This document shows, in pieces, positions 4,767 through 38,400 of a stretch of DNA of 64,000 nucleotides (within the stretch, counting starts at the first letter, position 1; each line of letters starts with the position of its first letter). The translations under genes were made by a program, and so were the position numbers. Source of the stretch: a virus; the IMG/VR virus record IMGVR_UViG_3300031344_000007, positions 7,083 through 71,082 of that record, one strand, 5' to 3'. The notes under the pieces are model-generated. The model saw nothing but the letters and a program-made list of their open reading frames with translations, made no database searches and was not told where the DNA came from.

Positions 4767-5861
4767 TTAATTATTTTCCAAACTATTTTCTGTATTTCGA
4801 GAAAACGGTTTCGAAAATACTGGTCGTATTTGCTTCCATATAATATTATTATAATTTTTTTTATCATATAATTGAAATAATATTGAGCGATATTCTGATT
4901 TTATTGATTCCATAGCAAATGCTTTACGGTCAGTAATTCCATTAACATGGTAAATTCTTACAAATTCTTTTAATGATTTTCTTTCGATTTCATTGAAATT
5001 CAATTGTAATTCTTTAATTGTTTTATTCAACCAACCCAAAAATTCATCAGGAACTTTATCAAGTAAAGCATCAAAATCATAATTATTCATCAAATGTTCC
5101 CAAACAGTTAGATTTGAAACATTAGTTAAAATACCATGTAATCTAACATATTCTGCAAATTTAACTTTTACTCTGAATCCATCTTTGAATTTCACAACGA
5201 ATCCTTCTCGGTTTTCTTCTTCAAGTTTTTGTAAATCTTTAAGATTTTTAATATTATTTATATTGTATTTCTTAACGATTGTAAAATACTTTGAATAAGT
5301 AGATACAATATCGTCATAGCATATTTCATCACCAGTTTTTGTATTAATTATGGTAAGTAATACAAGTTCTCTTCTATCACCATAATCAACAACAATGCGG
5401 TTTTCAGGTGCTAAGTATTCTAAAACATACGTAAAATTCTTATTTAAATTATCATAAACAGAATTATTAATTAATTTTTTTGCCTCAATTGCTTGTTCAG
5501 AAATAAATGAACCTCTACTAGCTACAATCCACTCCATACGTGGAATATAATAAAAAATTTCTATATAACTACCATCAATTTTTTCCAATATCTCAAATTC
5601 TTGTGACATATCAATTTCTGAAGGGTCATGTTCTTCATAGTTCTTGAATTTTTTTATACACCTAGCTAAAATATTACCTTCTGCATCAATAACCAATCCT
5701 CTACAAGAACTGGTATATAAATCCCAAAATTTTTTGAATTGAACTTTAGGTGAATAATTTAATATCCAAATCTCATATTCTGGATGTTTATTTGCAATTA
5801 TGAGATTGTTGTCAACATAACTTTTTAATACATTCCAATCAATTTTTTCTAATATTTCCAT
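4767..5861 (-). CDS. T4 Rnl1 (RnlA)-like RNA ligase
   Basis: CRGLVID, KFKN, motif I EKIDGS, ASRGSF, ENRIVVDY, motif IV EGFVV, RVKVK. Confidence 0.88.
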   Translation of the reverse strand: MEILEKIDWNVLKSYVDNNLIIANKHPEYEIWILNYSPKVQFKKFWDLYTSSCRGLVIDAEGNILARCIKKFKNYEEHDPSEIDMSQEFEILEKIDGSYIEIFYYIPRMEWIVASRGSFISEQAIEAKKLINNSVYDNLNKNFTYVLEYLAPENRIVVDYGDRRELVLLTIINTKTGDEICYDDIVSTYSKYFTIVKKYNINNIKNLKDLQKLEEENREGFVVKFKDGFRVKVKFAEYVRLHGILTNVSNLTVWEHLMNNYDFDALLDKVPDEFLGWLNKTIKELQLNFNEIERKSLKEFVRIYHVNGITDRKAFAMESIKSEYRSILFQLYDKKNYNNIIWKQIRPVFSKPFSRNTENSLENN

Positions 5862-8979: not shown

Positions 8980-8997
8980 AAAATTTCCCTCTATTTG

Positions 8998-9080
8998 TTT
9001 CCTTGGTGGGAGTCGAACCCACACGCCCGAAGGCACTCGCTTTTGGGGAGAGCATGTGCTGCCAATTTCATCACAAGGAA
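8998..9080 (-). tRNA. tRNA-Leu(CAA), with C33 and an anticodon-stem mismatch
   Basis: Acceptor TTCCTTG/CAAGGAA, loop CC CAA AA, variable arm GCC-TTCG-GGC. Confidence 0.8.
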
Positions 9081-9357: not shown

Positions 9358-9719
9358 TGGTGGAGATGCGGGGCATCGATTCCCCGGTGTTGCAATGTGA
9401 TTAATAAGTTTTCTACAAGTTTATTTGATTTTCATAAATCAGCAAAATGTTAATTGTATTTTTCCAGAACAACTACAAAACTGTCCAGAACTTATTTTAC
9501 TTCCTTTCTGATTTGGGAAGTTTTTTGCTGTTTATTTTTTCCTGTTACGCAATTGAAAGTACGGCACTCTTTACAAATACGCTGTTTCCTTTTGTCAAGG
9601 AAGTAGGAATAGACATAATGTCTTCTGCATTTATTGTTTTGAACCTTTTTAAAGTAGTCCGATTCAACTACTACTTGCTTACATCATTTTTCTACATACA
9701 GTCAAATCCATTCATCCCC
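9358..9719 (-). ncRNA. ssrA: tmRNA
   Basis: 5' GGGGATGAATGGATTTGAC, 3' CATCTCCACCA, G3:U70 pair, resume context ATAAAT-GCA, tag ORF 9628-9545. Confidence 0.93.
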
Positions 9720-10487: not shown

Positions 10488-10556
10488 AATTTTACAAATT
10501 TAGTCTATTATATAAATATATGCAAATAAAAAATAAGTTTTATTTAGATATCAAAG

Positions 10557-10639
10557 CACACCGAGAACGATTCGAACGCTCAAAACCATTACTGGTCGCA
10601 CTTTTGGAGAGTGTTTGGCTTACCAATGCCTACCGATGT
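10557..10639 (-). tRNA. tRNA-Trp(CCA) with a long variable arm
   Basis: Acceptor ACATCGG/TCGGTGT, G73, loop CT CCA AA, variable arm ACCA-GTAA-TGGT. Confidence 0.82.
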
Positions 10640-10662
10640 GTATATTACTGAAATAATTTTTG

Positions 10663-10744
10663 TAGCTCTGGTCGGATTCGAACCGACACGCCCGAAGACA
10701 TTTGCTTTTAAGACAAACACGTCTACCAATTCCATCACAGAGCC
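10663..10744 (-). tRNA. tRNA-Leu(TAA)
   Basis: Anticodon arm TTTGT-CT TAA AA-GCAAA, class II variable arm, T arm GTCGG-TTCGAAT-CCGAC. Confidence 0.92.
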
Positions 10745-10750
10745 ATATTG

Positions 10751-10821
10751 TGGATACTTCGGGACTCGAACCCAATCTTCTGAGTGCAAAACAGACGTTC
10801 TTTCCTTTGAACTAAAGACCC
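10751..10821 (-). tRNA. tRNA-Ala(TGC)
   Basis: G3:U70, A73, loop TT TGC AC; some stem mismatches. Confidence 0.8.
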
Positions 10822-10883
10822 ATATTAAATTTCTATGCTTTCCATTACTTGGAACTATGAAATTTTTAACAGTCTTTCTACCG

Positions 10884-10957
10884 TGGAATCGAAGGGCATC
10901 GAACCCTCACTCTCCTGATTGCAGGTCAGGTGCTTTAGCCAGTTAAGCTACGACCCC
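10884..10957 (-). tRNA. tRNA-Ala(TGC), with C33
   Basis: Acceptor GGGGTCG/CGATTCC with G3:U70, anticodon arm CCTGA-CC TGC AA-TCAGG. Confidence 0.88.
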
Positions 10958-10970
10958 AATTATTATTTAG

Positions 10971-11049
10971 TAGCCAAGAAGAGACTCGAACTCTCACCAA
11001 TGATTATGCGTTCTAAGCGCACAGACTTTACCATTTTGTCCACTCGGCT
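10971..11049 (-). tRNA. tRNA-Leu(TAG)
   Basis: Anticodon arm GTGCG-CT TAG AA-CGCAT, T arm GAGAG-TTCGAGT-CTCTT. Confidence 0.88.
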
Positions 11050-11054
11050 AAATG

Positions 11055-11146
11055 TACCCTAAATCCGACTCGAACGGATATTTTAGTTTTCACTAAAAAA
11101 TTGCTTCTTAGACAATCGTGTCTCACTCCAGTTGCACCATTAGGGC
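11055..11146 (-). tRNA. tRNA-Leu(AAG)
   Basis: Acceptor GCCCTAA/TTAGGGT, anticodon arm ATTGT-CT AAG AA-GCAAT, long variable arm. Confidence 0.85.
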
Positions 11147-11251
11147 ATTTAATTATCGGTTGTAGAACAAATATCGCCTTTTTAACCGATAAATATTAAA
11201 TATCGGTAATTAAGGCGATATTATGATTGTATTTGGCACTACAATCTTTTG

Positions 11252-11326
11252 TATTCCCTGTAGGCTTCGAACCTACGACATCTTGCTTGTAGGGCAAGCA
11301 CTCTGACCCATCTGAGTTAAGGGAAT
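11252..11326 (-). tRNA. tRNA-Val(TAC), with C33
   Basis: Acceptor ATTCCCT/AGGGAAT, anticodon arm CTTGC-CC TAC AA-GCAAG. Confidence 0.9.
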
Positions 11327-11426
11327 ATATTTGTTAGTAAAAGCCAGCATTAAATCAAATTTTATATGATAATGTTAGTATTTCTGTAAGTTTTGACATT
11401 ATTTTAATGAATCTTATGTAAAATAA

Positions 11427-12392
11427 TTATTTCCAAACACTATTTCTATTATTACCTTTACCAGCACATTGTCTTGAGCAATATATATTTTTTGATTTAC
11501 ATTGCTTTCCACAGACTTTACAAAAATTAGTTAACTTATTATATGGATTATCATCATATAAATGAATATAATTTTTACCATATTTTTCAATTATATATGA
11601 AAAAATATGTTTTAGTTCGTTTTTTTTCATAACAATTAATGGTTTTTTAAAAGAATTATATTTTAAAATATCTTTTTTCCTTTCATATCCTTTTATTTCA
11701 TAATAAACATTGTCGATAATAAAATCAGGATAATATTTGTGTTTTATATTATCAATGTAATATTCGAATCCATTATTATTTCTTTCAAAAATAATTTTAT
11801 GGTCTATATTATAGATAACAAATGCTAATTCATAACTACTATCACACCAATATCCTTTATACCAACCAGATTTACCTCTACCAGAACCTTTTCTATAACC
11901 ACCCTTACTAACACCTCTATATTTACAATTTTTATCATTACAATAACATTTTTTTGAACAATATATTCTATTATTTCCAGATTCTCTCACCCAAAAATCA
12001 TTTTTACAAATAGGACAAGTTTTTAATATTCTTTTATTTAAATTTTTTTGTACCCACCTTTTATTTTTATCGTGTAACAAATAATTTTTTTTATTAATAA
12101 AACCTATTTTAAGTTTTGTTTCTTCACTATGTTTTCTAGTGTTTGCACAACTTCTTGAACAAAAATATTTTTCTTTTTTTGGAATATTAACGTTATATTC
12201 ACTAATTTCAAATTCGCTTTTACATGTAAAACATTTAACTTTAAAAATTTTCCATTTGTTTAAAACAGTTATTTTTTGTTTTTCAATACTTTCTAATGTA
12301 GGAATATATTTTGTAGGGTTGTGTTTATTTCTACATTTTGAATTACAATATTTATTTTTTACTTCTTTACCACAATTTAAACATTTATTCAT
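11427..12392 (-). CDS. Free-standing PD-(D/E)XK endonuclease with Cys-rich Zn fingers and a NUMOD3-like motif
   Basis: DSSYE...YYPDF...YEIKG; repeated CxxC..(Y/F)CSxxC; HSEETKLKI. Confidence 0.78.
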   Translation of the reverse strand: MNKCLNCGKEVKNKYCNSKCRNKHNPTKYIPTLESIEKQKITVLNKWKIFKVKCFTCKSEFEISEYNVNIPKKEKYFCSRSCANTRKHSEETKLKIGFINKKNYLLHDKNKRWVQKNLNKRILKTCPICKNDFWVRESGNNRIYCSKKCYCNDKNCKYRGVSKGGYRKGSGRGKSGWYKGYWCDSSYELAFVIYNIDHKIIFERNNNGFEYYIDNIKHKYYPDFIIDNVYYEIKGYERKKDILKYNSFKKPLIVMKKNELKHIFSYIIEKYGKNYIHLYDDNPYNKLTNFCKVCGKQCKSKNIYCSRQCAGKGNNRNSVWK

Positions 12393-12467
12393 ATATAATA
12401 TTTTATATAAATACTATATACTCTTAAAAAGAATCGAAATTGTTTAATTAGAATGATTTAAATTTTG

Positions 12468-12551
12468 TACTGCATGAGGAATTCGAATCCTGCGAAGCCT
12501 TTCGGCACTTGCTTGAGAGGCAAGTCGCTTTAACCACTTGCATAATGCAGC
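12468..12551 (-). tRNA. tRNA-Glu(CTC) with a long variable arm
   Basis: Acceptor GCTGCAT/ATGCAGT, A73, anticodon arm CTTGC-CT CTC AA-GCAAG, variable arm GCC-GAAA-GGC. Confidence 0.82.
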
Positions 12552-12630
12552 AAATTAATTATTTCGTTTTTCTATTATTAATTCATTCAATTTTAAAAAC
12601 AATATAACAAATAGTTATCTTAATTATCAA

Positions 12631-12683
12631 TGCTGAGAACGTAGAATGAGAATCTTTTGTCCTAACCATTAGACGAACCGAGC
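12631..12683 (-). pseudogene. Truncated conventional tRNA-Glu(CTC) remnant
   Basis: GCTCGGT TCGTCTAATGGTTAGGAC...AGA-TT CTC AT-TCT; T arm missing. Confidence 0.6.
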
Positions 12684-12687
12684 ATTT

Positions 12688-13083
12688 CTATTTAAATTGT
12701 TTTGGAAGTAAAAAATGCTTATATTGAAAATGAATTTTAGGTTTAAGTGATGTTTCAAAAAATTCTCCTTGTTCTTTCATATCTTCATCATCTTCTTCAT
12801 ATTTCCAAACAACTAAAATATTGGTAAGGGATTTTGCAACTTTTTGTAATATATTAAAAAGTGCTTTATTTGATGATGAATTAATATATTCAAATTCACA
12901 AGTAATTGTTAAATCAACATCTGAATGGTTTTTAATAAATTCATCTAATGCTTTATCAATATTATCAAAGAACATTAAGGAATTCTCAGGAAATGATTTT
13001 CCAGTTATTGTAAGAATACCTCTTTTAATATTAAAAAAAACTGCGGGTGTGTTGTTCGTTGCATTAATATACAAATTTTCCAT
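12688..13083 (-). CDS. SiaC-family (DUF1987) phosphoprotein
   Basis: ATNNTPAV, GKSFPEN, EYINSSSNK, WKYEEDDEDMKEQGE. Start set at MENLY because the upstream extension overlaps the tRNA. Confidence 0.8.
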   Translation of the reverse strand: MENLYINATNNTPAVFFNIKRGILTITGKSFPENSLMFFDNIDKALDEFIKNHSDVDLTITCEFEYINSSSNKALFNILQKVAKSLTNILVVWKYEEDDEDMKEQGEFFETSLKPKIHFQYKHFLLPKQFK

Positions 13084-13112
13084 AATTAAAATTAGTTTTA
13101 ATTTAACATTTG

Positions 13113-13196
13113 TACAGCGTGTGGGATTCGAACCCAGCGAAACCTTTCGGTACAAGATTGAAGGTCTTGCCACTTTAACCGCTTGTATAACGCTGC
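13113..13196 (-). tRNA. tRNA-Glu(TTC) with a long variable arm and C33
   Basis: Acceptor GCAGCGT/ACGCTGT, A73, anticodon arm CAAGA-CC TTC AA-TCTTG, variable arm ACC-GAAA-GGT. Confidence 0.82.
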
Positions 13197-13200
13197 ATAA

Positions 13201-13294
13201 AATATTAATGTCGCTCTTCCTTGCTGAGTCGTACACCTAATTCAGAATTTTCATCTGAGGTCACAAGAATCGAACTTGCGTCCACATTAATATT
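13201..13294 (-). ncRNA. Circularly permuted tRNA-mimic RNA (YrlA-like order: T arm, closed acceptor, D arm)
   Basis: Terminal 11-bp stem AATATTAATGT/ACATTAATATT encloses GCAAG-TTCGATT-CTTGT, a closed acceptor-like stem and CTC-AGCAAGGAA-GAG. Confidence 0.65.
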
Positions 13295-13298
13295 TTGC

Positions 13299-13369
13299 CG
13301 AGACTGAGAGATTCGAACTCTAACCCACTGCGTGACAGGCAGTTATACTAGCCATTATACTACAGCCTC
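13299..13369 (-). tRNA. tRNA-Asp(GTC)
   Basis: Anticodon arm ACTGC-CT GTC AC-GCAGT, G73, T stem apparently 4 bp. Confidence 0.88.
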
Positions 13370-13382
13370 GAAAATTTCCAAC

Positions 13383-13395
13383 ATGTCAAAGAACA
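13383..13395 (-). promoter_or_regulatory. boxA-like antitermination site TGTTCTTTGACAT
   Basis: Resembles rrn boxA (TGCTCTTTAACA); similar GTTCTTTRA at 9724-9735 and 15263-15274. Confidence 0.55.
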
Positions 13396-13432
13396 TTATA
13401 CGAACAATATTAATTTTTGTTACATTCTTTTC

Positions 13433-13473
13433 AAAAAAAAATCTCGACCATTTTTAAGTGGTCGAGATTTTTT
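13433..13473 (-). terminator. Attenuator terminator of tRNA operon 2
   Basis: AAAAAATCTCGACCA-CTTAAAAA-TGGTCGAGATTTTTTTTT; 5' arm complementary to TGGTCGAGA in the leader. Confidence 0.88.
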
Positions 13474-13490
13474 CATTAAGAAAGGAAATA

Positions 13491-13586
13491 TTATCTTTCT
13501 CGACCAAATATAACAATATCTTCTGCATCTGCCCATAATAGGACAACTGCCATCTCTGATACTAATATGTCGAGTAATCTTTTCAT
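13491..13586 (-). CDS. Leader peptide 2 (MKRLLDILVSEMAVVLLWADAEDIVIFGRER)
   Basis: 31-codon ORF between a TATCTTTG promoter (13642-13649) and the terminator. Confidence 0.8.
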   Translation of the reverse strand: MKRLLDILVSEMAVVLLWADAEDIVIFGRER

Positions 13587-13678
13587 TATTTTTTAATTAT
13601 TAAATTTGTTTTACTAACTTCGTTTAATTCTAAATACGTTGCAAAGATATAAAATGTTACAATATATACAAACTTTTT

Positions 13679-14050
13679 TTAAAATATTTTTTTATAAGTA
13701 TCAAATAATGATTTAATATTTCGACTTCCAACCGGATTCATTGAGTGTATTAGAATTGTTTTAGGTATTTCTAATTTATTGTCAATACAATAATATATTA
13801 ACCATTTAGCACAATGATAACCAGTTTTTTCTGGATTATCATCATAATTAGCAACTCTTTCATAATCAATATAATTAAGGTCATGGTCAAAACTAATAGT
13901 TTCTGGAATACCATTTTCTTGAATCATTTTTACAAACTCATCATAATTTCTTACAATTTTCCAATCAAGAATATTATATGTTGGATTCCCTAAATAATAA
14001 AAAGAATCTACAGGTTCTCTGAAGTCATCGAGATAAAGATTATATATCAT
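13679..14050 (-). CDS. Cyclic-phosphate-processing receiver-like domain protein
   Basis: LYLDDFR, ISFDHDL, TGYHCAKWL, IHSMNPVG motifs. Confidence 0.72.
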   Translation of the reverse strand: MIYNLYLDDFREPVDSFYYLGNPTYNILDWKIVRNYDEFVKMIQENGIPETISFDHDLNYIDYERVANYDDNPEKTGYHCAKWLIYYCIDNKLEIPKTILIHSMNPVGSRNIKSLFDTYKKIF

Positions 14051-14117
14051 AATTTTTAATTATTAATTTGCAAAGATAATAAAAAAATAGATTAAATTTT
14101 ATAAAAAATATAAATAG

Positions 14118-14188
14118 TTCCCTTATTAGGATTTGAACCTAAATATTCATTTTCAGAGAATGAAATGTTACCATTACATCATAAGGAA
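14118..14188 (-). tRNA. tRNA-Gln(CTG)
   Basis: U1:A72 acceptor TTCCTTA/TAAGGGA, anticodon arm TCATT-CT CTG AA-AATGA. Confidence 0.88.
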
Positions 14189-14194
14189 ATATTG

Positions 14195-14267
14195 TTGCCA
14201 TGTACAGATTCGAACTGTAACTAATTGATTCAAAGTCAATTGTGCTAATCCATTACACAACAAGGCA
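14195..14267 (-). tRNA. tRNA-Gln(TTG)
   Basis: Anticodon arm ATTGA-CT TTG AA-TCAAT, T arm TACAG-TTCGAAT-CTGTA. Confidence 0.9.
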
Positions 14268-14273
14268 ATATTG

Positions 14274-14345
14274 GGGGTGATGAGGTATTTGAAACCTCCC
14301 CGACAGAATCACAATCTGGCATGCTACCGCTACACCAATCATCCC
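14274..14345 (-). tRNA. tRNA-His(GTG)
   Basis: Encoded G-1 and C73, loop TT GTG AT. Confidence 0.88.
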
Positions 14346-14352
14346 ATATAAA

Positions 14353-15201
14353 TTATATATTATTATAATATTCTAAAAATTTATTTATTTCATTCTTTAT
14401 ATATTGTTTACCATTTTCAGTATTAATATTTTTCCATTTTATTCTATAAACAACGTATCCATTATCATTTAATATTTTATCTCTAATTACATCATGTTCT
14501 TTTCTATAATTATGTTGTTTACCATCAATTTCTAAATCAATATTTTTATCTTCAATATAAAAATCTAAAAAATAATTACATGAATCGGTTAAGCCTAAAT
14601 TTCTTTTATTTACTGGATAATTATGTTTATAACCAATATTATTATTTTTTAGTACATTAATAAAAAACCGTTCAGGATAACTAATAATATTTCTTGCTGT
14701 CCAACCTTTATGAATACCATTTGCAATTCTTTTATTTATAAAATCTTTAGTATTATTACTTTTTAATTTTAAATGGCATTCTTTTGAACAACATTTAGAT
14801 TTACTTGGTTTTCCACTTAAACATTTTTGAGAAATAAATTCATTTTTACATATTACACATATTTTTTTAGTTTCACGATTAACTTTATTATTAATAAATC
14901 TATTGTTTAATAATGAATCACTTATTTTATTTTTTGTTTCGTTACTTAATTTTCTTTTTTTATTATTAAATGTTGCAGCACATGAACTATTACAAAATTT
15001 GTTTCTACTATTTATTTTTTTATTACAATTTAAACAATATTTTATTTTTTTATTAAAATGTGATACATTAATATCATTTTCTAATATAAATTCGTTTAAT
15101 TCTTCATATACTCTAGCATTTGAAAATCCAAAATATTTTAATAATATTTCATTTTTAGATTTAGATGTTTCAATAATCTCAATTAATTTTTTTTCACACA
15201 C
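14353..15201 (-). CDS. Free-standing DUF559/Vsr-like endonuclease with Zn-finger and NUMOD3-like motifs
   Basis: YFLDF...LEIDGKQH...HDVIRDKIL...GYVVYRIKW. Confidence 0.78.
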   Translation of the reverse strand: MCEKKLIEIIETSKSKNEILLKYFGFSNARVYEELNEFILENDINVSHFNKKIKYCLNCNKKINSRNKFCNSSCAATFNNKKRKLSNETKNKISDSLLNNRFINNKVNRETKKICVICKNEFISQKCLSGKPSKSKCCSKECHLKLKSNNTKDFINKRIANGIHKGWTARNIISYPERFFINVLKNNNIGYKHNYPVNKRNLGLTDSCNYFLDFYIEDKNIDLEIDGKQHNYRKEHDVIRDKILNDNGYVVYRIKWKNINTENGKQYIKNEINKFLEYYNNI

Positions 15202-15345
15202 AATATTTAAATTTATTATAAATACTGTGGATGTCGAAAAAATACGAGTTGAACTATAGGTATTTCAAAGAACTTTGCTAAATTTTTAGTTAACCTTTTG
15301 GTTATGCAGTGATTACTACGTGCAAGTAATTTAACATCAATCACT

Positions 15346-15430
15346 TCGGGGTGACACGGTTCGAACGTGCGAGGGATTTCTCCACCTGCTTCCAAGGCAG
15401 GACTGCTACCAACTACAGACCTACACCCCG
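15346..15430 (-). tRNA. tRNA-Pro(TGG) with a long variable arm
   Basis: Acceptor CGGGGTG/CACCCCG, A73, anticodon arm CCTGC-CT TGG AA-GCAGG, variable arm GGA-GAAA-TCC. Confidence 0.85.
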
Positions 15431-15441
15431 ATATATATAAT

Positions 15442-16810: not shown

Positions 16811-18040
16811 TTGAAAATGAAAAATTCCATTAGAATACTTTTATTGGAAAATTCCAATGTTCAAGCAAAGACGATACTTCAATTATTAAGAAACGGTGAA
16901 AACAATATATCAGTATTGATTGCCGAAAACAGAAAATCTTATATTGAATTATTAAATGATAATGCTATTGATATTATCATATGTAATCATGTATTACCAG
17001 AAGGTTTCAATTCATTAGAAGCAATGAGAATTGCTAAGAATATTTATCCAAATATTCCATGTATATTACTTTCAGGGTCAATTAATGATGATTTTGCTAT
17101 CGAGTTACTTAAAGAAGGATTTGATGATTACGTTAGTAATGACCATTTATTCTTTTTACCATTTTCAATTGAAAACGTTTTTCTTAAATATTCATATAAG
17201 GCAGAAATTACTAAATTAGAATCTGAAATCAAAATATTGCAAGAATCTTATAATATAATTGATGATGAGAAAAGAAGTATGACACAAAGTATTATTTTTG
17301 CTGAAAGAATTCAAAGTTTAACATTACCCAAAATTGATTTATTACTTAATAATTTCAAAGAAGCATTTATATATTATAAACCAAAAGATATTGTAAGTGG
17401 AGATTTTTATTGGTTTTCAGCAGATGGTGATAATGTTGTTATTGTGGTTGCCGATTGTACTGGACATGGTGTATCTGGTTCATTATTAGCCATGCTTGGT
17501 TCTAATTTTTTAAATGAAATTGTTGAAAATGAAAATAATTATGATAATCCAACAGATATACTTATAAAACTTGATGCTAATCTTTGTAAAGTATTAAAAC
17601 AATCAGTAGAGAATAATTATCAAGATGGAATTGATTTAGCTTTAATTTCCATTAATAAAAAAGAAAAGAAAATACGTTTTAGTGGATGTAATGGTTCATT
17701 ATTATATATTATGAAAGGTCAAAAGAAAATCAACATATATAAAGGAAATTCATATTTAATTGGTGGTATTGATTATTATAGTATTAATAAAAAATTTGTT
17801 ACAGAAGAAATAAATTATGAAACAGGTGATGTAATTTATATGCACACAGATGGATATGTTGACCAATTTGGTGGAGATAATAATAAAAAATTTAATAAAA
17901 ATGTTTTTTATAATTTATTATGTTCATTTCAACATTTAAGTTTACAATATCAATGTCAATTAATCGAACAAAGATTATTAAAATGGAAAGGTTGTTTCCC
18001 ACAAACAGATGATATTTTAGTTGTTGGCATTAAATTATAA
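16811..18040 (+). CDS. Receiver-like domain fused to a SpoIIE/PP2C phosphatase
   Basis: KPKDIVSGDFYW, ADCTGHGVSG, DGIDLA, TDGYVDQFGG, QTDDILVVG. Confidence 0.88.
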   Translation: MKMKNSIRILLLENSNVQAKTILQLLRNGENNISVLIAENRKSYIELLNDNAIDIIICNHVLPEGFNSLEAMRIAKNIYPNIPCILLSGSINDDFAIELLKEGFDDYVSNDHLFFLPFSIENVFLKYSYKAEITKLESEIKILQESYNIIDDEKRSMTQSIIFAERIQSLTLPKIDLLLNNFKEAFIYYKPKDIVSGDFYWFSADGDNVVIVVADCTGHGVSGSLLAMLGSNFLNEIVENENNYDNPTDILIKLDANLCKVLKQSVENNYQDGIDLALISINKKEKKIRFSGCNGSLLYIMKGQKKINIYKGNSYLIGGIDYYSINKKFVTEEINYETGDVIYMHTDGYVDQFGGDNNKKFNKNVFYNLLCSFQHLSLQYQCQLIEQRLLKWKGCFPQTDDILVVGIKL

Positions 18041-19332: not shown

Positions 19333-22300
19333 TTAATCTAAAACAATGGTATATTCATTTGTACTAATAATAAAATTTCTTATATAAACTGTACTTCCTA
19401 CTCCAGCTTGTACATAAATTGTTATATCATCACCGGGAGACCAACCTGCTATATCTTCACTATAAGTAACATAACTTGTAGTTGCAGTTCGTGGTGTTCC
19501 TACTCCACTAGCACCTTTTTCAATTAGTGCTGCTCCACCTGCTCCACTTGCATATTTAACATCAAATTTAATTCTATATGTTCCTGAATAAGCATTTATT
19601 TTAATATCTTTTAACTTGGTTGGAGTAGTAGATGTTGATGTTCTTTCAGTTAATGATTGAGCTATAATAGAATCTCCTGCTAAACTAACTATATTAGTTA
19701 CTCCATAAATAGTTGTACCTGATATAATTGGACTTTTTACACTTGTTGCTGCATAAAGATTTCCTGATGTTGTATCAATTCTAACAACATTAGTAGTACC
19801 AGCAGCATTTGTAAAAGTAAATCCTGAATAACTATCAACTCTTGGTTTAAAAGTTAAATTACCAGAATTATTATAAAGAGTATGACTATAATCACTAATA
19901 CTTGTAGATGTTCCACCCATTACCAATGAATTTGCACCTATTATTCTTGCACTACCATTAACATCAAGCATATACATAGGTGCTGTTGCAAAACCTATTG
20001 CCATACTTCCATTTTGGGCAATGCCATCCACGTAAGTATAACCCCCACCATTTCTATCAAAAGCAAATCTCAATAGTGAAGTTGGAGTAGTACCTTTAGT
20101 AGATAAGTTTTCTATTATCCAGTTCATCGTATTACTAACTGCTACTGCAGTTGTATTCCAAGCCGTACCAGATAATCTAATACGGGGAGATATCTGGTCT
20201 TGTCCTACTAAAGCAGCAGTAGTATTGGTTACAACTAATCCATCAGTTGATGTTAGTGTTAAAGCTGTTTTTGTTGATGCTACATAGCTAAATGCTCCTG
20301 TAGTCGCAGCTAATGCAGCAGTCGTTATATTTCCAGCATAAAGATATGATTGAGTTCCTAAAGTAATAACTGGTAGGGCATTCGTAGCACTTGAGCCAGC
20401 TATAGACCATGACATTAAGGTAATACCATCCGCAGTTTGAATTTGATTTGATGCTAATTTTAAATTACCATCAATTAATAAATCGCCTGTTCCTACTGTT
20501 TTATCTTTTATACTAATAGATGTTATAGTTATTGTTTGAGATGCGGGAGCTATAATAATTAGTTTACCAGTTGTTGTAGCTAATATATCACAAGTATATG
20601 TTCTTGCACTTAGTAAATAATAAAGACCAGAAACTCCTCCAAGTTGATAATTTATTGAACTACCTACGGAAACAGCACTAACTATAATGGTTACTCTATA
20701 TGTATGTCCTATTTGAATGTTTGATGTTCCTGTTGGAGTTGCAGTTAATGAATTAGTACTTGCTGTTTTTACTAAAGTACCGCCAGTTGCTTTCCAACCA
20801 CCAACACCAGCATCATACCCTAATGTCCAAAATGATGTGGTTAATGGTGGTGCTAATTCTGCACCAATGGTGGCATAAGTTTTTGCATTTTGTCCTGCAG
20901 TATTTGAACCAATATCTAACCCTATTGTAGGTGAAGCATTTCCTATTCCTATTTTTCCACTATTTAAAATTCTCATTGCTTCAGTATTACCATTATTTCC
21001 AACTTTAAAAACAATATCAGCACCTGTTGTACCACTTGCAGAAGTTGATATTATATTTAATCCTGAATTTGTTGAGGTTGAACCAATTATTGTTTGACCA
21101 CCACTAAGACCAGTAATTAAATTATTTTTAACGATTCTGCTACTTAATGTTATACCTGATGTTGCACCAGTAATTGCATTAGTTATTGCAGTATTGGTTT
21201 TACCTGTATAACTATTAATTTGTGTTTTATTATAATAATTTGCAGGTTCAGTAGTACCAGTATAATAATTAATTTGTGATGTTGTACTATATTGACTATG
21301 TGTATGTCCAGTTTGAAAGATACTTAAAGTCGTACCTGATAACCATGCAGGTTTATTAGTTAATGTAGTCCAAGATGGTGTTGCTATAATTGGAGAATAT
21401 ATTGTAACAGTATTTGTAGCTCCAGTTTTAATAATAGTTGCTCCACTTTGAATAAATGTATAATAATTGGTTTTAGTTAAACCTGAAACTCCTTGTATAC
21501 CCTGAATGCCTTGACTTCCAGTATCACCCTTATCACCTTTAATTCCCTGTATGCCTTGAATACCCTGCGCTCCAGTTGCACCACTTAAACCACGTATACC
21601 TTGTATACCCTGAGCACCTGTAGCTCCTGAAATGCCTCTTATGCCCTGTATTCCCTGTATACCTTGAGCACCAGTAGCTCCTGAAATGCCTTGAATCCCT
21701 TGACTTCCAGTATCACCTTTATCGCCTTTAATTCCCTGTATGCCTTGTATACCCTGTGCTCCAGTTGCGCCACTAATACCACGTATACCTTGAATTCCCT
21801 GTATACCCTGAGCACCTGTAGCTCCACTAATACCACGTATACCTTGGATGCCTTGAGCACCAGTAGCTCCACTTAAACCACGAATACCTTGAATACCCTG
21901 TATACCTTGAGCACCAGTTGCACCACTAATTCCTCTTATGCCTTGGATACCCTGACTTCCAGTAGCACCACTTAAACCTCTTATGCCCTGTATTCCCTGT
22001 ATACCTTGAGCACCAGTAGCTCCTGAAATGCCTTGAATGCCTTGTGCTCCTGTAGCTCCTGAAATGCCTCTTATGCCTTGTGCACCTGTAGCTCCACTAA
22101 TACCTTGTATTCCTTGTGCACCAGTGTGTCCTGAAATTCCTTGAATACCTTGTATACCCTGTGCACCAGTAGCTCCACTTAAACCTCTTATACCTTGTAT
22201 ACCTTGAATTCCCTGTATACCTTGTGCACCTGTAGCTCCACTTAAACCACGAATACCCTGTATACCTTGAATTCCCTGTGCTCCAGTTGCACCTGAAATT

Positions 22301-24156
22301 CCTCTTATACCTTGTGCTCCAGTTGCGCCACTAATACCACGTATACCTTGAATACCTTGTGCACCAGTAGCTCCTGAAATGCCTCTTATGCCTTGAATAC
22401 CTTGTATTCCTTGAGCACCTGTTGCTCCACTTAAACCTCTTATACCTTGAATACCTTGAGCACCAGTTGCTCCTGAAGGTACATAGATATTTAATGTGTA
22501 GGCATTACCTATTTTATTTTGATGTACAATTGTTGAACCTGAACCAGAAAAAGTAAATGTTGGCGTTATTCCTGAAATGCCTTGTATACCCTGAACACCA
22601 GTATGTCCACTAACCCCTTGTATGCCTTGAATTCCCTGTATACCTTGTGCACCAGTAGCACCACTTAAACCTCTTATACCTTGAATACCCTGTGCTCCCG
22701 TAGCTCCACTTAAACCACGAATACCCTGAATACCTTGACTTCCCTGTGCACCAGTTGCACCACTTAAACCACGAATACCCTGAATACCTTGTGCTCCTGT
22801 TGCACCACTAATTCCTCTTATGCCTTGGATACCTTGAGCACCAGTATGTCCACTAACCCCTTGAATGCCTTGTATACCCTGTATGCCTGTATGTCCACTA
22901 ACTCCTTGAATTCCCTGAATGCCTGTATGTCCACTAACTCCTTGAATTCCCTGAATGCCTTGGATGCCTTGAGCACCAGTAGCTCCTGAAATTCCTTGGA
23001 TACCTTGACTTCCAGTATCACCTTTATCACCCTTAATACCTTGTATACCCTGAATACCTTGTGCTCCTGTTGCACCACTAATTCCTCTTATGCCTTGAAT
23101 TCCCTGTATGCCTTGTATTCCCTGAGCACCCGTAGCACCACTAATACCACGTATACCCTGAATACCTTGTACTCCAGTATGTCCTGAAGGTGCATAGATA
23201 TTTAAAGTATAATTGTTACCTACTTTATGCTGGTTAATTATTGTACTTCCTGAACCAGAAAAGGTAAAAGTTGGGGTCACGCCTGAAATTCCTTGAATAC
23301 CTTGACTTCCAGTATCTCCTTTTACACCAGTGTGTCCCGAAACTCCTTGAATACCCTGTACACCAGTACGTCCACTAATTCCTTGAATTCCTTGTGCTCC
23401 TGTTGCACCCGAAGGCGAATAAATATAAATTTTAGTTATATCACCAATTGTTGTTGCACTAACCACAGTTGGTGTTACACCAGTAAAAATATAATTTCCC
23501 GAACCTCCTGTTGATATTCGAGTATAAATTCTATATGTATTATCCACCAATTTTACAATAGTTTCACCACTACCTAAAAATGAAGGTTTATTTGTTATTG
23601 TATTTCCAGTATAACTATGATTATGTGCTAATTCAAAATTAATTAAAGTTGTTCCAGTTAACCATGTAGGACGATTTTTTAGAGTTAACCAAGAAGTTGA
23701 TATACCAGTAATTGCATTATAAACAGCAAGTGTTGAAGTATATCCGGTTATATTTGGATTTAATAAATCGTTCTTTTTATTAGCAATGTTTTCTGCAATA
23801 TATGGTGGTCTAATTACTGGTATATTTGAATTATAATCAGTTAAGACAACCATATCTTTAGCTGCATCAATAATACCTTGTCCGGTATTAGTAACTTCAA
23901 CATATTCTAATAAGTTAGAATTGTTACTACTTAAAACAATTACTTCGTTATTTGTATTAACAATTTTTTTGTGATTATGTACTAATCCATAAGTTAATGG
24001 TATTGTTGTACCAGTATAAATATTAAATTTTGAACCATAATCAGTTAAGACAATCATATCTTTAGCTGCATCTTGTCCAGTATTTGTAACTTCAACATAT
24101 TCTAATAAGTTAGAATTGTTATCATTTATAACAATTTCTTCATTATTTGTATTCAC
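19333..24156 (-). CDS. Tail fibre-like protein with collagen (Gly-X-Y) repeats
   Basis: About 600 aa of GIQ/GAQ/GAT/GIS triplets, Thr/Gly-rich C-terminal region with EAMRI..GKIGIG motif. Confidence 0.85.
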   Translation of the reverse strand: MNTNNEEIVINDNNSNLLEYVEVTNTGQDAAKDMIVLTDYGSKFNIYTGTTIPLTYGLVHNHKKIVNTNNEVIVLSSNNSNLLEYVEVTNTGQGIIDAAKDMVVLTDYNSNIPVIRPPYIAENIANKKNDLLNPNITGYTSTLAVYNAITGISTSWLTLKNRPTWLTGTTLINFELAHNHSYTGNTITNKPSFLGSGETIVKLVDNTYRIYTRISTGGSGNYIFTGVTPTVVSATTIGDITKIYIYSPSGATGAQGIQGISGRTGVQGIQGVSGHTGVKGDTGSQGIQGISGVTPTFTFSGSGSTIINQHKVGNNYTLNIYAPSGHTGVQGIQGIRGISGATGAQGIQGIQGIQGIRGISGATGAQGIQGIQGIKGDKGDTGSQGIQGISGATGAQGIQGIQGIQGVSGHTGIQGIQGVSGHTGIQGIQGIQGVSGHTGAQGIQGIRGISGATGAQGIQGIRGLSGATGAQGSQGIQGIRGLSGATGAQGIQGIRGLSGATGAQGIQGIQGIQGVSGHTGVQGIQGISGITPTFTFSGSGSTIVHQNKIGNAYTLNIYVPSGATGAQGIQGIRGLSGATGAQGIQGIQGIRGISGATGAQGIQGIRGISGATGAQGIRGISGATGAQGIQGIQGIRGLSGATGAQGIQGIQGIQGIRGLSGATGAQGIQGIQGISGHTGAQGIQGISGATGAQGIRGISGATGAQGIQGISGATGAQGIQGIQGIRGLSGATGSQGIQGIRGISGATGAQGIQGIQGIRGLSGATGAQGIQGIRGISGATGAQGIQGIQGIRGISGATGAQGIQGIQGIKGDKGDTGSQGIQGISGATGAQGIQGIQGIRGISGATGAQGIQGIRGLSGATGAQGIQGIQGIKGDKGDTGSQGIQGIQGVSGLTKTNYYTFIQSGATIIKTGATNTVTIYSPIIATPSWTTLTNKPAWLSGTTLSIFQTGHTHSQYSTTSQINYYTGTTEPANYYNKTQINSYTGKTNTAITNAITGATSGITLSSRIVKNNLITGLSGGQTIIGSTSTNSGLNIISTSASGTTGADIVFKVGNNGNTEAMRILNSGKIGIGNASPTIGLDIGSNTAGQNAKTYATIGAELAPPLTTSFWTLGYDAGVGGWKATGGTLVKTASTNSLTATPTGTSNIQIGHTYRVTIIVSAVSVGSSINYQLGGVSGLYYLLSARTYTCDILATTTGKLIIIAPASQTITITSISIKDKTVGTGDLLIDGNLKLASNQIQTADGITLMSWSIAGSSATNALPVITLGTQSYLYAGNITTAALAATTGAFSYVASTKTALTLTSTDGLVVTNTTAALVGQDQISPRIRLSGTAWNTTAVAVSNTMNWIIENLSTKGTTPTSLLRFAFDRNGGGYTYVDGIAQNGSMAIGFATAPMYMLDVNGSARIIGANSLVMGGTSTSISDYSHTLYNNSGNLTFKPRVDSYSGFTFTNAAGTTNVVRIDTTSGNLYAATSVKSPIISGTTIYGVTNIVSLAGDSIIAQSLTERTSTSTTPTKLKDIKINAYSGTYRIKFDVKYASGAGGAALIEKGASGVGTPRTATTSYVTYSEDIAGWSPGDDITIYVQAGVGSTVYIRNFIISTNEYTIVLD
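21490..23410 (-). repeat. Collagen-like tandem repeat region
   Basis: Degenerate 9-nt units, e.g. GGTATACAA/GGTGCTCAA; boundaries approximate. Confidence 0.9.
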
Positions 24157-35492: not shown

Positions 35493-38400
35493 ATGGCTGA
35501 ACCAGCAAAAAATAAAGGAACTGTATATCAAGAACTCAATAAAATGATGAATCTTGATGGGTTTGGTTTTCAAGATAATCAACCTACAAGTGTAATGCAA
35601 CAAGCATCCGCACCACCATCAGAAAAATCTAAAATAATTATTAAGGGTAATAGTCCTGAAGAAATTCATAAAAAGGGTTTAGAGTTAGAACAGAAAAGAG
35701 AACTTCAAAATAAATTTTTTAGAACAACTGATAGGGGTTTTCAAAAAGCACTTCAATATGAAGCAGCAAGATTACCTGCATACATGGATTATGAAGGGAT
35801 GGAATATTATCCTATTATCAGCAGTGCGTTAGATTTATTCATGGAAGAAGCAACTACAATTGGTTTCAATGGTAAAATGTTAAATATATATTCCAATAAA
35901 GAAAGAATAAAAATGTTGTTAGAGGAATTTTTTTATGATATAGTAAATGTTAATGTTAATTTACCATTCTGGGTAAGAAATACACCAATTAAATATGATA
36001 GTATTATCCCATTATTGAGTGGTGAAGAAATCACAATAAAAGAATTATCAGAAAGATTAAAGAAAAACCCAAAGGATGAAATTTGGACTTATTCAATTCA
36101 AGATAAAACAAATAAAATAGTTGCTGGTAAAATAGTTTGGTGTGATTTAACTAGAAAAGATAGTGATATATTAAAAATTACTTTCGATGATGGTACATAT
36201 GTTGAAACAACACCAGACCATGAATATATGCTTAGAAATGGTTCATATTTAAGAGCAGATAAATTAAATGCTGGTTCTAGTTTAATGCCATTTTATACAT
36301 TAACAAGTAATGAGGCTAATTATATTTCTGGATACGAAAAAGTTTATAATCCAGCATCAAATCATCATGTATTTACCCATAGAATTGTTGCACAAGAATG
36401 TGTTATTAATTTAGATGAAGAGAATAGAATAAAAGAAGATTTTGTTACACACCATGTTGATTTTAATAAAAAGAATAATAGTCCTTCAAATTTATTAAGA
36501 ATGACAAATGCTGAACATGGTAATTATCATGCTAAACTAGGTAATGTGGGAAAAATTATATTACAAAGAGAAGATGTAAGAAAAAATAGAATGTTAGGTA
36601 TTGATAAATATTTACGTTCAGAAAAAAGAAAAAAAAGATTATCAAAAGAAATGTTAGGAATTTACCCAACTTATTTTGATAAATATAATAACAGTCCATT
36701 ACATGATGAACATAATATTATTCGTAAGAATAAAATGACAGAATTGTGGTTAGATGAAAATTATCAGAATAAAGTAAAAGATAAGATGCAATTAAAATTA
36801 AATGATAATTGTTTAAAACATATAGTTAATATTTTGGGTCGTAGTAAGACATATATTGGATGTGCTAATTTAGGAAAAGAATTAATGAAAGATGCTCAAT
36901 TCATGCTATTATTTAAATCATCTAATCCTAATATTAGAAAAAATTTAAATAAATCATTAAGTAGTACTACATTATATAAACTTATATTTAGAAAAACGCA
37001 AATGAAATATTGTGATTTTGTGTCAAGTATTAATCCTAAGATAATTAATGAAACAAATTTTAAAAGAGCAAATGCTATTTCAAATAAATCTAATATAAAA
37101 GCATCATCAATATTAAATCATAAAGTATTATCGATTGAAAAAATTGATGAAAAATGCGATGTTTATTGTATGGAAGTTGTTGGCAAAAACAATGAGCAAG
37201 ATAGACATAATTTTCCTGTTTGTAGTAAAAATGAAAACGGTGAATATACCAGAAATGGTGTCTTTCTTTCGAATTGTAAATATGGCGATAATTTCGTCCT
37301 ATTATATGGTGAACGTAAAAAAGGTATTACTCATGTGAAACAATTAGTTAATTACGAAATTGAAAGATTTGAAAGAATTCAAAATGGTAAACCATTGGTT
37401 AAATTCAAAGAAAGAATGACTGGTGACGAATTTAATGTTTTTGAAATTGCTCATTTTCGACTTTTAGGTGATGATAAATATTTACCTTATGGAAGTTCTA
37501 TTTTAAATAAAGTTCGCAGAGTTTTTAGACAACTTGTAATGGCAGAAGATGCCATGCTTACATATCGTATTATTCGTGCTGGTGAAAAGAAAGTATTTAA
37601 AATTGATGTTGGAAATATTGATGAGGATGATATTGAAGAATATATTTATAAAGTTGCTACAAAATTTAAAAAATCAGCACAAGTAAATCCAAATGATGGT
37701 CAGATTGATTATCGTTTTAATATACTTGGTAATGATGAAGATTATTTTATTCCAGTTAGAAATGCAAATACTGAAACTGGTATTGATACATTACCCGGTG
37801 CAACTAACCTAGATGCTATACAAGATATTGAGTATCTGAGAGATAACCTTTTCATCGGACTTGGGATTCCAAAACCTTTTTTATCATTTCAAGATGCTGC
37901 AGGTGCAGGTAAAAATATGGCACAATATGATATTAGATTTTCAAAAAAAATAAATCGTATTCAACAAGCCATAATTCAAGAATTGAATAAAATGGCAATG
38001 GTTCATTTATATTTATTAGGATATACTGGCGAAGATTTAAGTAGTTTTACACTTACGCTCACAAATCCAAGTACTCAACAAGAATTATTAAAGTCTGAAT
38101 TAATGCGTGATAAAGCACAAACATATACTGAATTAACACGTGCTGAAGGTGGTATTGCAGCTATGTCACATACTACTGCAAAACGTATGATTTTCAATAT
38201 GAGTGATAAAGCTATTGTTGATGATTTGAAACAACAAAAAATGGAAAAAGTTGTTATGCAAGAACTTCAAGATTCTCCAGTTACAATTAAAAAATCTGGT
38301 TTGTTTACTGATATTGATAAACGTTTTGGTTCACCAGAAGAAATGCCAATATCTGGTGCAACTGCTGGTGGTGCTCTTCCTTCTGCTGGTGGTGGAACTG

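Follow-up and report, generated by a model that had tools for sequence, protein, structure and literature searches.

Long variable arms on tryptophan, glutamate and proline tRNA genes of an uncultured T4-like phage and their conservation in phage tRNA clusters

The rule that a long variable arm marks a bacterial transfer RNA (tRNA) for leucine, serine or tyrosine (or selenocysteine, Sec), the class II tRNAs, underlies both tRNA annotation and the view of how synthetases discriminate between their substrates. Four genes on the 64-kb stretch analysed here (bases 7083-71082 of the IMG/VR virus record IMGVR_UViG_3300031344_000007; hereafter the window) depart from this rule. By their anticodons they are tRNA-Trp(CCA), tRNA-Glu(CTC), tRNA-Glu(TTC) and tRNA-Pro(TGG), and each of them carries an additional hairpin between the anticodon stem and the T stem. 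The locus thus raises the question of whether such tRNAs are working decoders and with which amino acid they would be charged. A first-pass annotation had offered two answers, remodelled tRNAs that resist nucleases or missense tRNAs charged with leucine or serine. We found that the underlying observation is right and larger than the window alone shows, as long-armed tRNAs of this kind are widespread and conserved in phage tRNA clusters. The extra arm is probably without effect on the amino acid that is loaded.

ARAGORN called 19 tRNA genes in the window, all of them on the minus strand between positions 1145 and 15431. The spans printed for the four long-armed genes were 10556-10639 (Trp), 12467-12551 (Glu(CTC)), 13112-13196 (Glu(TTC)) and 15345-15431 (Pro), i.e., 84-87 nt (positions up to the discriminator are given in Table 1), and the genes are 10-13 nt longer than the norm of their isotypes. 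Direct reading of the sequence gave exactly the arms that had been described in the first-pass annotation, each capped by a GNRA loop, and also bore out its statements on the first pair and discriminator of tRNA-Pro and on G73 of tRNA-Trp. With stems of 3-5 bp, the variable regions (14-16 nt) form a stem-loop of at least 10 nt as in class II, while the anticodons CCA, CTC, TTC and TGG belong to none of the class II isotypes. All four genes have a 7-bp acceptor stem, 5-bp anticodon and T stems, a 7-nt anticodon loop, the T-loop TTCGAAY and GG in the D loop. Exceptions from the regular cloverleaf are an A.C mismatch topping the anticodon stem of tRNA-Trp, one bulged base in the T stem of tRNA-Glu and C33 in tRNA-Glu(TTC). 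tRNA-Trp (GGC/GCC) and both Glu genes combine a D stem of 3 bp with an enlarged D loop; the minimum-energy fold of tRNA-Pro contained a 4-bp D arm of the class-I type behind a 5-nt connector. Acceptor and T stems form a 7/5 branch in all four cases, not the 8/4 or 9/3 branch of allo-tRNAs. The CCA end is absent from the sequence of the four genes, which is why a CCA-adding enzyme would be required.

The Rfam tRNA model RF00005 (gathering cut-off 29 bits) listed none of the four genes with default filters; with permissive filters it matched tRNA-Pro (40.2 bits), tRNA-Glu(CTC) (38.8 bits) and tRNA-Glu(TTC) (35.9 bits). Folding of the single sequences predicted the extra hairpin in all four tRNAs and a complete five-arm shape for tRNA-Trp. 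As the folding z-scores were only modest (-1.3 to -2.2), we placed the weight on covariation and not on energy. The two Glu genes, which had been annotated as paralogues with compensatory stem changes and A73, indeed have this discriminator and show paired differences in the acceptor, D, anticodon, extra and T stems.

A pattern derived from the two Glu genes led to six viral contigs with syntenic arrays. A search with the terminase yielded 123 relatives, of which 80 were kept, their terminases being 56-86% identical to that of the window. Three relatives that are complete according to CheckV (322-363 kb) gave 50-60 tRNA-model matches each; a fourth complete relative and 14 more records were also searched. 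The array regions of 17 records were fetched (30 stretches) and, together with locus L004, make up the 18 records used in the following. ARAGORN called 552 tRNAs in them, 505 of which are distinct. All 18 records contain at least one long-armed tRNA that is not specific for Leu, Ser or Tyr. Altogether 64 of the 505 distinct tRNAs belong to this group, with variable regions of 12-26 nt. They comprise tRNAs for Gln (11), Pro (9), Trp (7), Thr (7), Cys (6), Glu (6), Asn (5), Lys (5), Val (3), Met (2), His (1), Asp (1) and Ile (1). Conversely, 26 distinct Leu, three Ser and two Tyr tRNAs are only class-I-sized. In phage arrays the rule is therefore broken both ways, by long-armed tRNAs of non-class-II isotypes and by arm-less tRNA-Leu. 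The class-I-sized tRNAs with Leu anticodons, all having A73, often adjoin a long-armed tRNA-Leu with the same anticodon (e.g., L002 4532-4606; L004 2456-2530 and 6670-6744).

Orthologues of the window genes were found among these records. The tRNA-Trp orthologue in G004 has an altered extra-arm stem (ACCC/GGGT), while the long tRNA-Pro is identical in G005 and its relative in G011 kept the GGA/TCC stem with a different loop. In the long tRNA-Pro of the window, five bases and not two separate the acceptor and D stems. This type of D arm is shared with a Pro tRNA of G011 (record position 50068) and a Met tRNA of G013 (record position 95429). Some further peculiarities of the arrays were recorded. 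C33 replaces the near-universal U33 in four of the 19 window tRNAs (Leu-CAA, one Ala-TGC, Val-TAC and Glu-TTC, Table 1) and in 38 of the 496 distinct clade tRNAs that have 7-nt anticodon loops. Four of the seven records tabulated first (G001, G002, G003 and G005) contain tRNAs with the anticodon CTA, by which they would be amber suppressors, and a few tRNAs of the relatives have odd anticodon loops, labelled by ARAGORN as 2- or 4-letter anticodons.

Long-armed tRNA-Trp also exists outside the clade. We scanned for the Trp anticodon loop followed by a common T-loop word 17-28 bases on, a spacing by which class-I tRNAs are excluded. Among the matches listed for viral contigs, 77 of 80 loci had the match inside a long-armed tRNA-Trp, 70 of these 77 with G73; among those listed for genome records, 18 of 79 matches lay within long tRNA-Trp(CCA) calls. 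Some of the latter are located in dense tRNA arrays on short contigs of metagenome-assembled genomes (MAGs), and a Collinsella MAG contains a class-I Trp body with an inserted hairpin. A class-I-spaced Trp match was also present in four of five genomes checked, indicating that the long forms are additional copies and not the norm of the host. Among cultured phages, the annotated tRNA-Trp of the Caulobacter phages CcrColossus and CcrPW is of the long-armed kind. Thus, long-armed tRNA-Trp occurs throughout the giant-phage clade, on many unrelated viral contigs and in at least one cultured phage. The genome records also contain CCA tRNAs with other bodies: Ser-bodied ones (G1, G2, G73) in records of Pelagibius, Saccharibacteria, Planctomycetaceae and Ferruginibacter, and Leu-bodied ones (A73) in records of Dehalococcoidia and the Parcubacteria group (loci L151, L158, L163, L175, L176, L182, L143 and L185). 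Hence the premise of the first-pass annotation, that in bacteria only tRNAs for Leu, Ser, Tyr and Sec have long arms, was too strict, in view of these long-armed CCA tRNAs in cellular genome records as well as of the allo-tRNAs and selC* tRNA-Cys (PMC5389517).

What is conserved in the arms is their structure and not their sequence. In the alignment of the Glu family (seven sequences), 161 of 161 stem cells were paired and both sides had changed in 11 of 23 pairs, including two of the three extra-arm pairs (GCC/GGC, ACC/GGT, ATC/GAT). None of 500 shuffles reached the observed pairing, and slid partners were paired to 30-46%. The bulged T-stem base is common to the family except for the member of G001. 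In the long families of Trp, Pro, Gln, Cys and Thr, 98.0-99.5% of the acceptor, anticodon and T-stem cells were paired, and 39 of 40 members possess the extra hairpin, albeit with varying stems. An alignment of 42 distinct viral tRNA-Trp, fitted to the covariance model of a G001-type tRNA-Trp, revealed that the extra-arm pairs are kept in 35/38, 32/33 and 33/37 cases, with at least four pair types each. The MAFFT alignment of the seven Trp genes of the clade was structurally poor across two subtypes and was excluded from the pair counts. By folding energy alone, a variable-region hairpin of at least three pairs was predicted for 48 of the 64 long tRNAs, and the loops of 22 fit the GNRA motif. 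The extra stem has a median length of 3 bp in these 64 tRNAs versus 6 bp in Ser tRNAs of the clade. Two of the 64 have their own anticodon inside the predicted extra loop; the four window loops are 4-nt GNRA caps. A reading of the genes as pseudogenes or decaying genes was rejected on the basis of the covariation in the Glu and other long families. Clustering by whole-tRNA similarity was too noisy for conclusions on origins, but two trends were usable, acceptors resembling those of the same isotype and D arms resembling class II types. The Glu body looks closest to tRNA-Tyr of the clade, and tRNA-Pro gives the impression of a class-I body into which a hairpin was inserted.

The arm might nevertheless be a neutral scar, i.e., the tolerated baggage of a class II ancestor or a chance insertion in arrays that are being reshuffled, with some copies perhaps decaying. 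The mixture of body types (Tyr/Ser-like, Leu-like and class-I with insert) would fit such an origin, as would the arm-less Leu tRNAs together with the report that the LeuRS of E. coli has no need of the arm (Giege and Eriani 2023, PMC9976931). Active rearrangement of the array is furthermore evident from its homing-endonuclease genes and from a tRNA gene that has been truncated. On the other hand, in every family the arm has stayed paired through compensatory changes, and it persists over the whole range of terminase divergence given above and on unrelated viral contigs, although a useless insert of 10-20 nt would be expected to be lost often. Neutrality would account for tolerance, not for persistence, and we regard it as an unlikely explanation.

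To judge the amino acid, the genes were compared with published identity rules. According to Giege and Eriani (2023, PMC9976931), tRNA-Trp is identified by discriminator, anticodon and first pair (in bacteria CCA, G73 and A1:U72), tRNA-Pro by G72, G35, G36 and A73, and tRNA-Cys by U73 and GCA. The window tRNA-Trp possesses CCA, G73 and A1:U72, the window tRNA-Pro G35, G36, A73 and G72, and by these rules both look like cognate substrates. A similar picture emerged for the 18 records, in which long and short tRNAs share the features of their isotype: A1:U72 (long 6/7, short 6/9) and G73 (6/7, 9/9) for Trp, C1:G72 (8/9, 20/24) and A73 (9/9 and all) for Pro, G1.U72 (6/6, 21/22) and A73 (all in both forms) for Glu, U1:A72 (9/11, 25/30) for Gln, and U73 for Cys (6/6, 7/7) and Thr (6/7, 14/14). 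As the acceptor end and discriminator of the long forms follow their own isotype, the reading we prefer is that host enzymes charge them cognately.

The same review gives the rules for the class II amino acids. Leu identity in E. coli depends on A73 and core tertiary pairs, the extra arm being dispensable for LeuRS; A73 and U35 are critical for tyrosylation; and Ser identity resides in the arm, G73 and acceptor pairs, the anticodon being ignored by LeuRS and SerRS (PMC9976931). Among the distinct tRNAs of the clade, A73 occurs in 68/68 Leu and 16/16 Tyr tRNAs and G2:C71 in 21/22 Ser tRNAs. Under the published rules, the window tRNA-Trp cannot be a substrate for leucylation or tyrosylation. The Ser set (long arm, G73, G1:C72, G2:C71) is likewise incomplete in all four tRNAs, as tRNA-Trp has A1:U72, C2:G71 and an arm of 4-5 bp, and the Glu and Pro tRNAs have A73. 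Of the Leu set, to which the tertiary determinants A15:U48 and the D-loop layout also belong, A73 is present in Glu and Pro. The charging with leucine or serine that had been proposed as one alternative is therefore disfavoured for tRNA-Trp, both by its G73 and by its C2:G71, whereas tRNA-Pro and tRNA-Glu are compatible with it through A73. A search for synthetase domains of the Glu/Gln, Trp/Tyr and Pro/Ser/Thr/His types (three Pfam families) found none in the four complete relatives and the window's record (G000-G003, G013), other synthetase families lying outside the search; phage-encoded enzymes, a possibility contained in the first-pass annotation, were thus not met with in these three families.

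Some points weigh against functional tRNAs with cognate charging. The window tRNA-Trp was never matched by RF00005, neither with permissive filters nor when 141 bases were searched alone. The tRNA tables consist of ARAGORN calls in array regions and not in whole genomes, so that a few scattered tRNAs are missing, and the synthetase rules stem from E. coli and a few other species and may not be those of the host. For E. coli tRNA-Glu, the core determinants U11:A24, U13:G22:A46 and the absence of nucleotide 47 have been reported (PMC9976931). The anticodon-loop set of Glu (U34/U35/C36/A37) is present in the long forms (loops CCTTCAA and CTCTCAA, the CTC copy with C34). The core determinants are absent from them, since the second D-stem pair is A-U in six and G-C in one of the seven sequences and the variable region comprises 15 nt; class-I Glu tRNAs of the clade keep an E. 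coli-like D arm and a variable loop of 3-5 nt. Moreover, the long tRNA-Glu carries both A73 and U35, the pair critical for tyrosylation, and the best matches of the Glu covariance model outside the family include phage tRNA-Tyr (67.1, 62.1 and 61.5 bits; family members at least 98.9 bits). G1.U72, present in 6/6 long Glu tRNAs versus G1:C72 in 13/14 long Tyr tRNAs of the clade, speaks for Glu and against Tyr. Taken together, the identity of the long tRNA-Glu appears ambiguous from its determinants, and TyrRS is a more serious mischarging rival for it than LeuRS or SerRS.

If the class II body decided charging, the long tRNAs would be missense decoders, the Glu forms being tyrosylated and the others serylated or leucylated, and GAA/GAG, TGG and CCA codons would partly be mistranslated. 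Besides the Tyr-like traits of the Glu family and the indifference of LeuRS and SerRS towards the anticodon, the Ser- and Leu-bodied CCA tRNAs in cellular records speak for this, and so does the Pro(TGG) tRNA of G003. This gene (L093 2140-2223), with G1:C72, A73 and a D arm of the Leu type, may be a tRNA with a Leu body whose anticodon has changed. Against it stand the acceptor ends, namely G73 and C2:G71 in Trp and the G1.U72 that the long Glu shares with class-I Glu tRNAs, and the extra stems, which are half as long (by median) as in Ser tRNAs of the clade. Furthermore, the long form is the sole tRNA-Trp called in G000, in G002 and in the covered part of G004, and nearly every phage protein would be hit, because GAA makes up 806 of the 848 Glu codons counted in the window. 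Missense decoding is improbable in our view.

Evidence for a role in decoding came from a rearrangement close to the long tRNA-Glu(CTC). Upstream of it lies the remnant of a class-I tRNA-Glu(CTC) that has lost its 3' half; the 41 nt left of the 5' part match the complete 74-nt gene of G005 at every position. Contig joints and loose ends were detected at 12643 in several sequencing runs. In this phage alone, the long tRNA-Glu downstream of the remnant reads CTC (loop CTCTCAA, U33); G005 and contigs from three other runs show CCTTCAA (TTC, C33) at the position corresponding to 12517/12518. The switch of the anticodon may well have restored a reader of GAG after truncation of the class-I gene, which suggests that decoding matters. 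Codon usage was determined in 21 large open reading frames (ORFs) of the window with 13,041 codons, none of which was an in-frame stop codon under code 11. GAA prevails over GAG (42) and CAA (453) over CAG (57), CCA accounts for 216 of 397 Pro codons, and TGG occurs 122 times. The long forms of Gln (11/11), Lys (5/5) and Thr (7/7) exclusively have U34 anticodons. These data indicate that the long forms serve the commonest codons of the phage. A weak hint of expression was obtained from a peat metatranscriptome library, in which contigs covered tRNA-Pro (15257-15416, no differences) and a relative's long tRNA-Glu with the neighbouring SiaC gene; such contigs give neither ends nor strand, and the RNA library may contain DNA.

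The long copies could instead be non-decoding, for example decoys or sponges for host nucleases and toxins that target tRNAs, with translation left to short copies and host tRNAs. This assumption is favoured by the array regions of the four complete relatives, where 15 of the 20 anticodons with a long form also have a short one, by the position of the array among genes of the RNA-repair type (the Rnl1-type ligase and the cREC_REC protein, Table 1) and by reports that phage tRNAs counter tRNA-cleaving defences (PMC10264068; PMC11555353; PMC13096335). However, a mere decoy would have no need of the determinants in acceptor, discriminator and anticodon, all of which are conserved, the remaining five of the 20 anticodons exist in the long form only, and the apparent switch to CTC after the loss of the class-I Glu(CTC) hints at a role in decoding. 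We hold such a role to be quite improbable.

Genes for a portal, a large terminase and a prohead protease of the T4 type are found in the window, which has a G+C content of about 27% and is part of a 71-kb record with an estimated completeness of 22%. Its source is an uncultured T4-like giant phage of a clade with genomes of 320-360 kb. Near-identical DNA was not found in cultured phages by megablast, and the best terminase matches in cultured phages are about 27% identical. Assemblies holding the stretch or large parts of it originate from rhizosphere, pond, peat and viral metagenomes. Three further tRNAs lie upstream of the window in the same record, among them a tRNA-Cys(GCA) that measures 88 nt, has U73 and bears an extra arm of 4 bp. 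A terminator consensus scan gave two terminator-like sites versus 1.9 expected, i.e., the level of chance; one is situated just upstream of tRNA-Pro.

Table 1. Positions of the long-armed tRNA genes and of other features of the window
Feature	Position	Strand	Remarks
tRNA-Trp(CCA)	10557-10639	minus	83 nt to the discriminator; A1:U72, G73; 3-bp D stem; 16-nt variable region
Extra arm of Trp, ACCA-GTAA-TGGT	10585-10596	minus	read from the sequence; minimum-energy fold lengthens the stem to 5 pairs
tRNA-Glu(CTC)	12468-12551	minus	84 nt; G1.U72, A73; tRNA-Tyr-like D arm; anticodon loop CTCTCAA; 15-nt variable region
Extra arm of Glu(CTC), GCC-GAAA-GGC	12497-12506	minus	read from the sequence
tRNA-Glu(TTC)	13113-13196	minus	84 nt; G1.U72, A73, C33; anticodon loop CCTTCAA; 15-nt variable region
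Extra arm of Glu(TTC), ACC-GAAA-GGT	13142-13151	minus	read from the sequence
tRNA-Pro(TGG)	15346-15430	minus	85 nt; C1:G72, A73; 5-nt connector, class-I-type D arm; 14-nt variable region
Extra arm of Pro, GGA-GAAA-TCC	15374-15383	minus	read from the sequence
Remnant of class-I tRNA-Glu(CTC)	12643-12683	minus	41 nt
tRNA-Leu(CAA)	8997-9080	minus	C33
tRNA-Ala(TGC)	10883-10957	minus	C33
tRNA-Val(TAC)	11251-11326	minus	C33
tmRNA	9358-9719	minus	Rfam 68.4 bits
T4 Rnl1-type RNA ligase	4767-5861	minus	Pfam RNA_lig_T4_1, E 2.6e-19; PHROG 562, E 3.5e-63
Homing-endonuclease-like ORF	11427-12392	minus	321 aa; PHROG HNH endonuclease, E 1.2e-6; directly downstream of long-armed Glu(CTC)
SiaC-family phosphoprotein	12688-13083	minus	between the two Glu tRNAs
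cREC_REC ('cyclic-phosphate processing receiver') domain protein	13679-14050	minus	Pfam PF20274, E 3e-23; within the tRNA array
DUF559/NUMOD3 homing-endonuclease-like ORF	14353-15201	minus	282 aa; directly downstream of long-armed Pro
Receiver + PP2C (SpoIIE) phosphatase	16811-18040	plus	
1607-aa ORF	19333-24156	minus	38% G+C patch
Portal with intein splicing domain	35493-38816		
Prohead protease with intein splicing domain	45707-47611		
UvrD-like helicase with intein splicing domain	55362-57932		LAGLIDADG domain in the intein

The tRNA array also harbors a transfer-messenger RNA (tmRNA); L004 likewise has a tmRNA, with a tag peptide called by ARAGORN. The SiaC-family phosphoprotein and the nearby receiver/PP2C phosphatase look like a phage signalling pair. 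Farther away, three proteins contain intein splicing domains, and the 1607-aa ORF with its collagen-like repeats matches phage tail-fibre or collagen-like proteins. Each of the two homing-endonuclease-like ORFs is skipped by a single contig, the HNH-like one by a viral-metagenome contig joining 12393 to 15211 (run X9) and the DUF559/NUMOD3 one by a contig joining 14366 to 15257 (RNA library X20). That the hairpins confer immunity by interrupting the tRNA-gene target of these free-standing endonucleases, to which their location directly downstream of long-armed genes and the skipping contigs might point, is very improbable, as the identical tRNA-Pro of G005 lies only about 110 bases from the next tRNA and thus has no adjacent endonuclease gene, and as the distribution of long-armed tRNAs extends far beyond that of these ORFs.

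We conclude that the genes very probably are functional tRNAs. The best explanation, which we favour with some confidence, is that they are selectively maintained elongator tRNAs whose anticodon, first acceptor pairs and discriminator specify one isotype, while their body has a fifth arm in the style of class II. Host TrpRS and ProRS, and less surely GluRS, would charge them cognately, and they would decode TGG, CCA/CCN, GAA and GAG in the normal way. Overall, charging with the amino acid of the own anticodon is the more probable outcome, with greater assurance for Trp and Pro and less for Glu. The compensatory changes, the isotype-specific acceptor ends and discriminators and the anticodon switch of Glu thus all favour the remodelled working decoders of the first-pass annotation, as far as this can be judged from sequence.

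Why the arm is kept can only be guessed. A tentative idea is that it permits escape from host nucleases or toxins which read the shape of tRNAs, a view into which the re-housed identity sets, the C33 loops and the arm-less Leu tRNAs could be fitted. Phages might, and we offer this as speculation, systematically swap body plans, using class II bodies for Trp, Glu, Gln, Pro, Cys, Thr, Lys and others and disarming Leu. The products would still be substrates of synthetases and ribosomes while evading immune nucleases and toxins, or the phage's own enzyme degrading host tRNAs, that read the elbow, the variable region or U33. Pairs of long and short forms would then be a bet-hedged double set.

Pipelines that apply covariance-model cut-offs may miss such genes, as the failure of RF00005 to match the window tRNA-Trp and its need of permissive filters for the other three illustrate. 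If the tRNAs are cognately charged, they are natural tests of the tRNA parts needed by synthetases, EF-Tu, modification enzymes and defence nucleases and could serve as scaffolds for engineering; mischarging of some would mean deliberate mistranslation by the phages.

Some known systems resemble the tRNAs described here. In common with the class II tRNAs of bacteria (Leu, Ser, Tyr, Sec) they have a variable-region stem-loop of at least 10 nt, in Trp and Glu combined with a 3-bp D stem and a large D loop, and frequently a tetraloop on the extra arm as in the clade's own Leu and Tyr tRNAs. They differ in that anticodon and acceptor end mark them as tRNAs for Trp, Glu and Pro, and in the relatives also for Gln, Cys, Thr, Lys, Asn, Val, His and Met. 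In the selC* tRNA-Cys and allo-tRNAs, the acceptor/T branch is 8/4 or 9/3 and the D arm resembles that of tRNA-Sec; Ser identity was inferred for most allo-tRNAs (Mukai et al. 2017, PMC5389517). By comparison, the window tRNAs have 7/5 branches and retain discriminators unlike that of Ser. Class II bodies bearing the anticodons of other amino acids have been described as nev-tRNAs in nematodes (Hamashima et al. 2012, PMC3333845). These are eukaryotic, whereas the acceptor ends of the window tRNAs follow the anticodon. The nematode nev-tRNAs are reportedly charged with leucine, which would make them a true mismatch of body and anticodon. Phage tRNAs that counteract tRNA-cleaving defences (van den Berg et al. 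2023, PMC10264068; Azam et al. 2024, PMC11555353; PMC13096335) are similar insofar as the phage copies differ from those of the host at sites read by nucleases and as their arrays are associated with homing endonucleases. The changes reported for them are point mutations of the anticodon loop or gene amplification, not alterations of the body plan.

A literature search, with subscription journals and supplements outside its reach, yielded no description of phage 7/5 tRNAs for Trp, Glu, Pro or Gln with long arms, nor of arm-less Leu tRNAs, and the main text of the CcrColossus genome paper (PMC3556154) neither contains the word 'variable' nor mentions the long-armed tRNA-Trp. A counterpart is the tRNA-Trp of this phage (JX100810.1, 59240-59325), which has 86 nt, A1:U72, G73, a Tyr/Ser-like D arm and a 3-bp extra arm capped by GCAA and followed by TTC. 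It shares its architecture with the Trp tRNAs of G001 and G002. CcrColossus differs in being a cultured siphophage of a host with 67% G+C and in encoding the CCA end; the window tRNA-Trp represents a more divergent subtype with a shorter D loop. CcrColossus and Caulobacter constitute a system in which the question raised by the window is directly testable.

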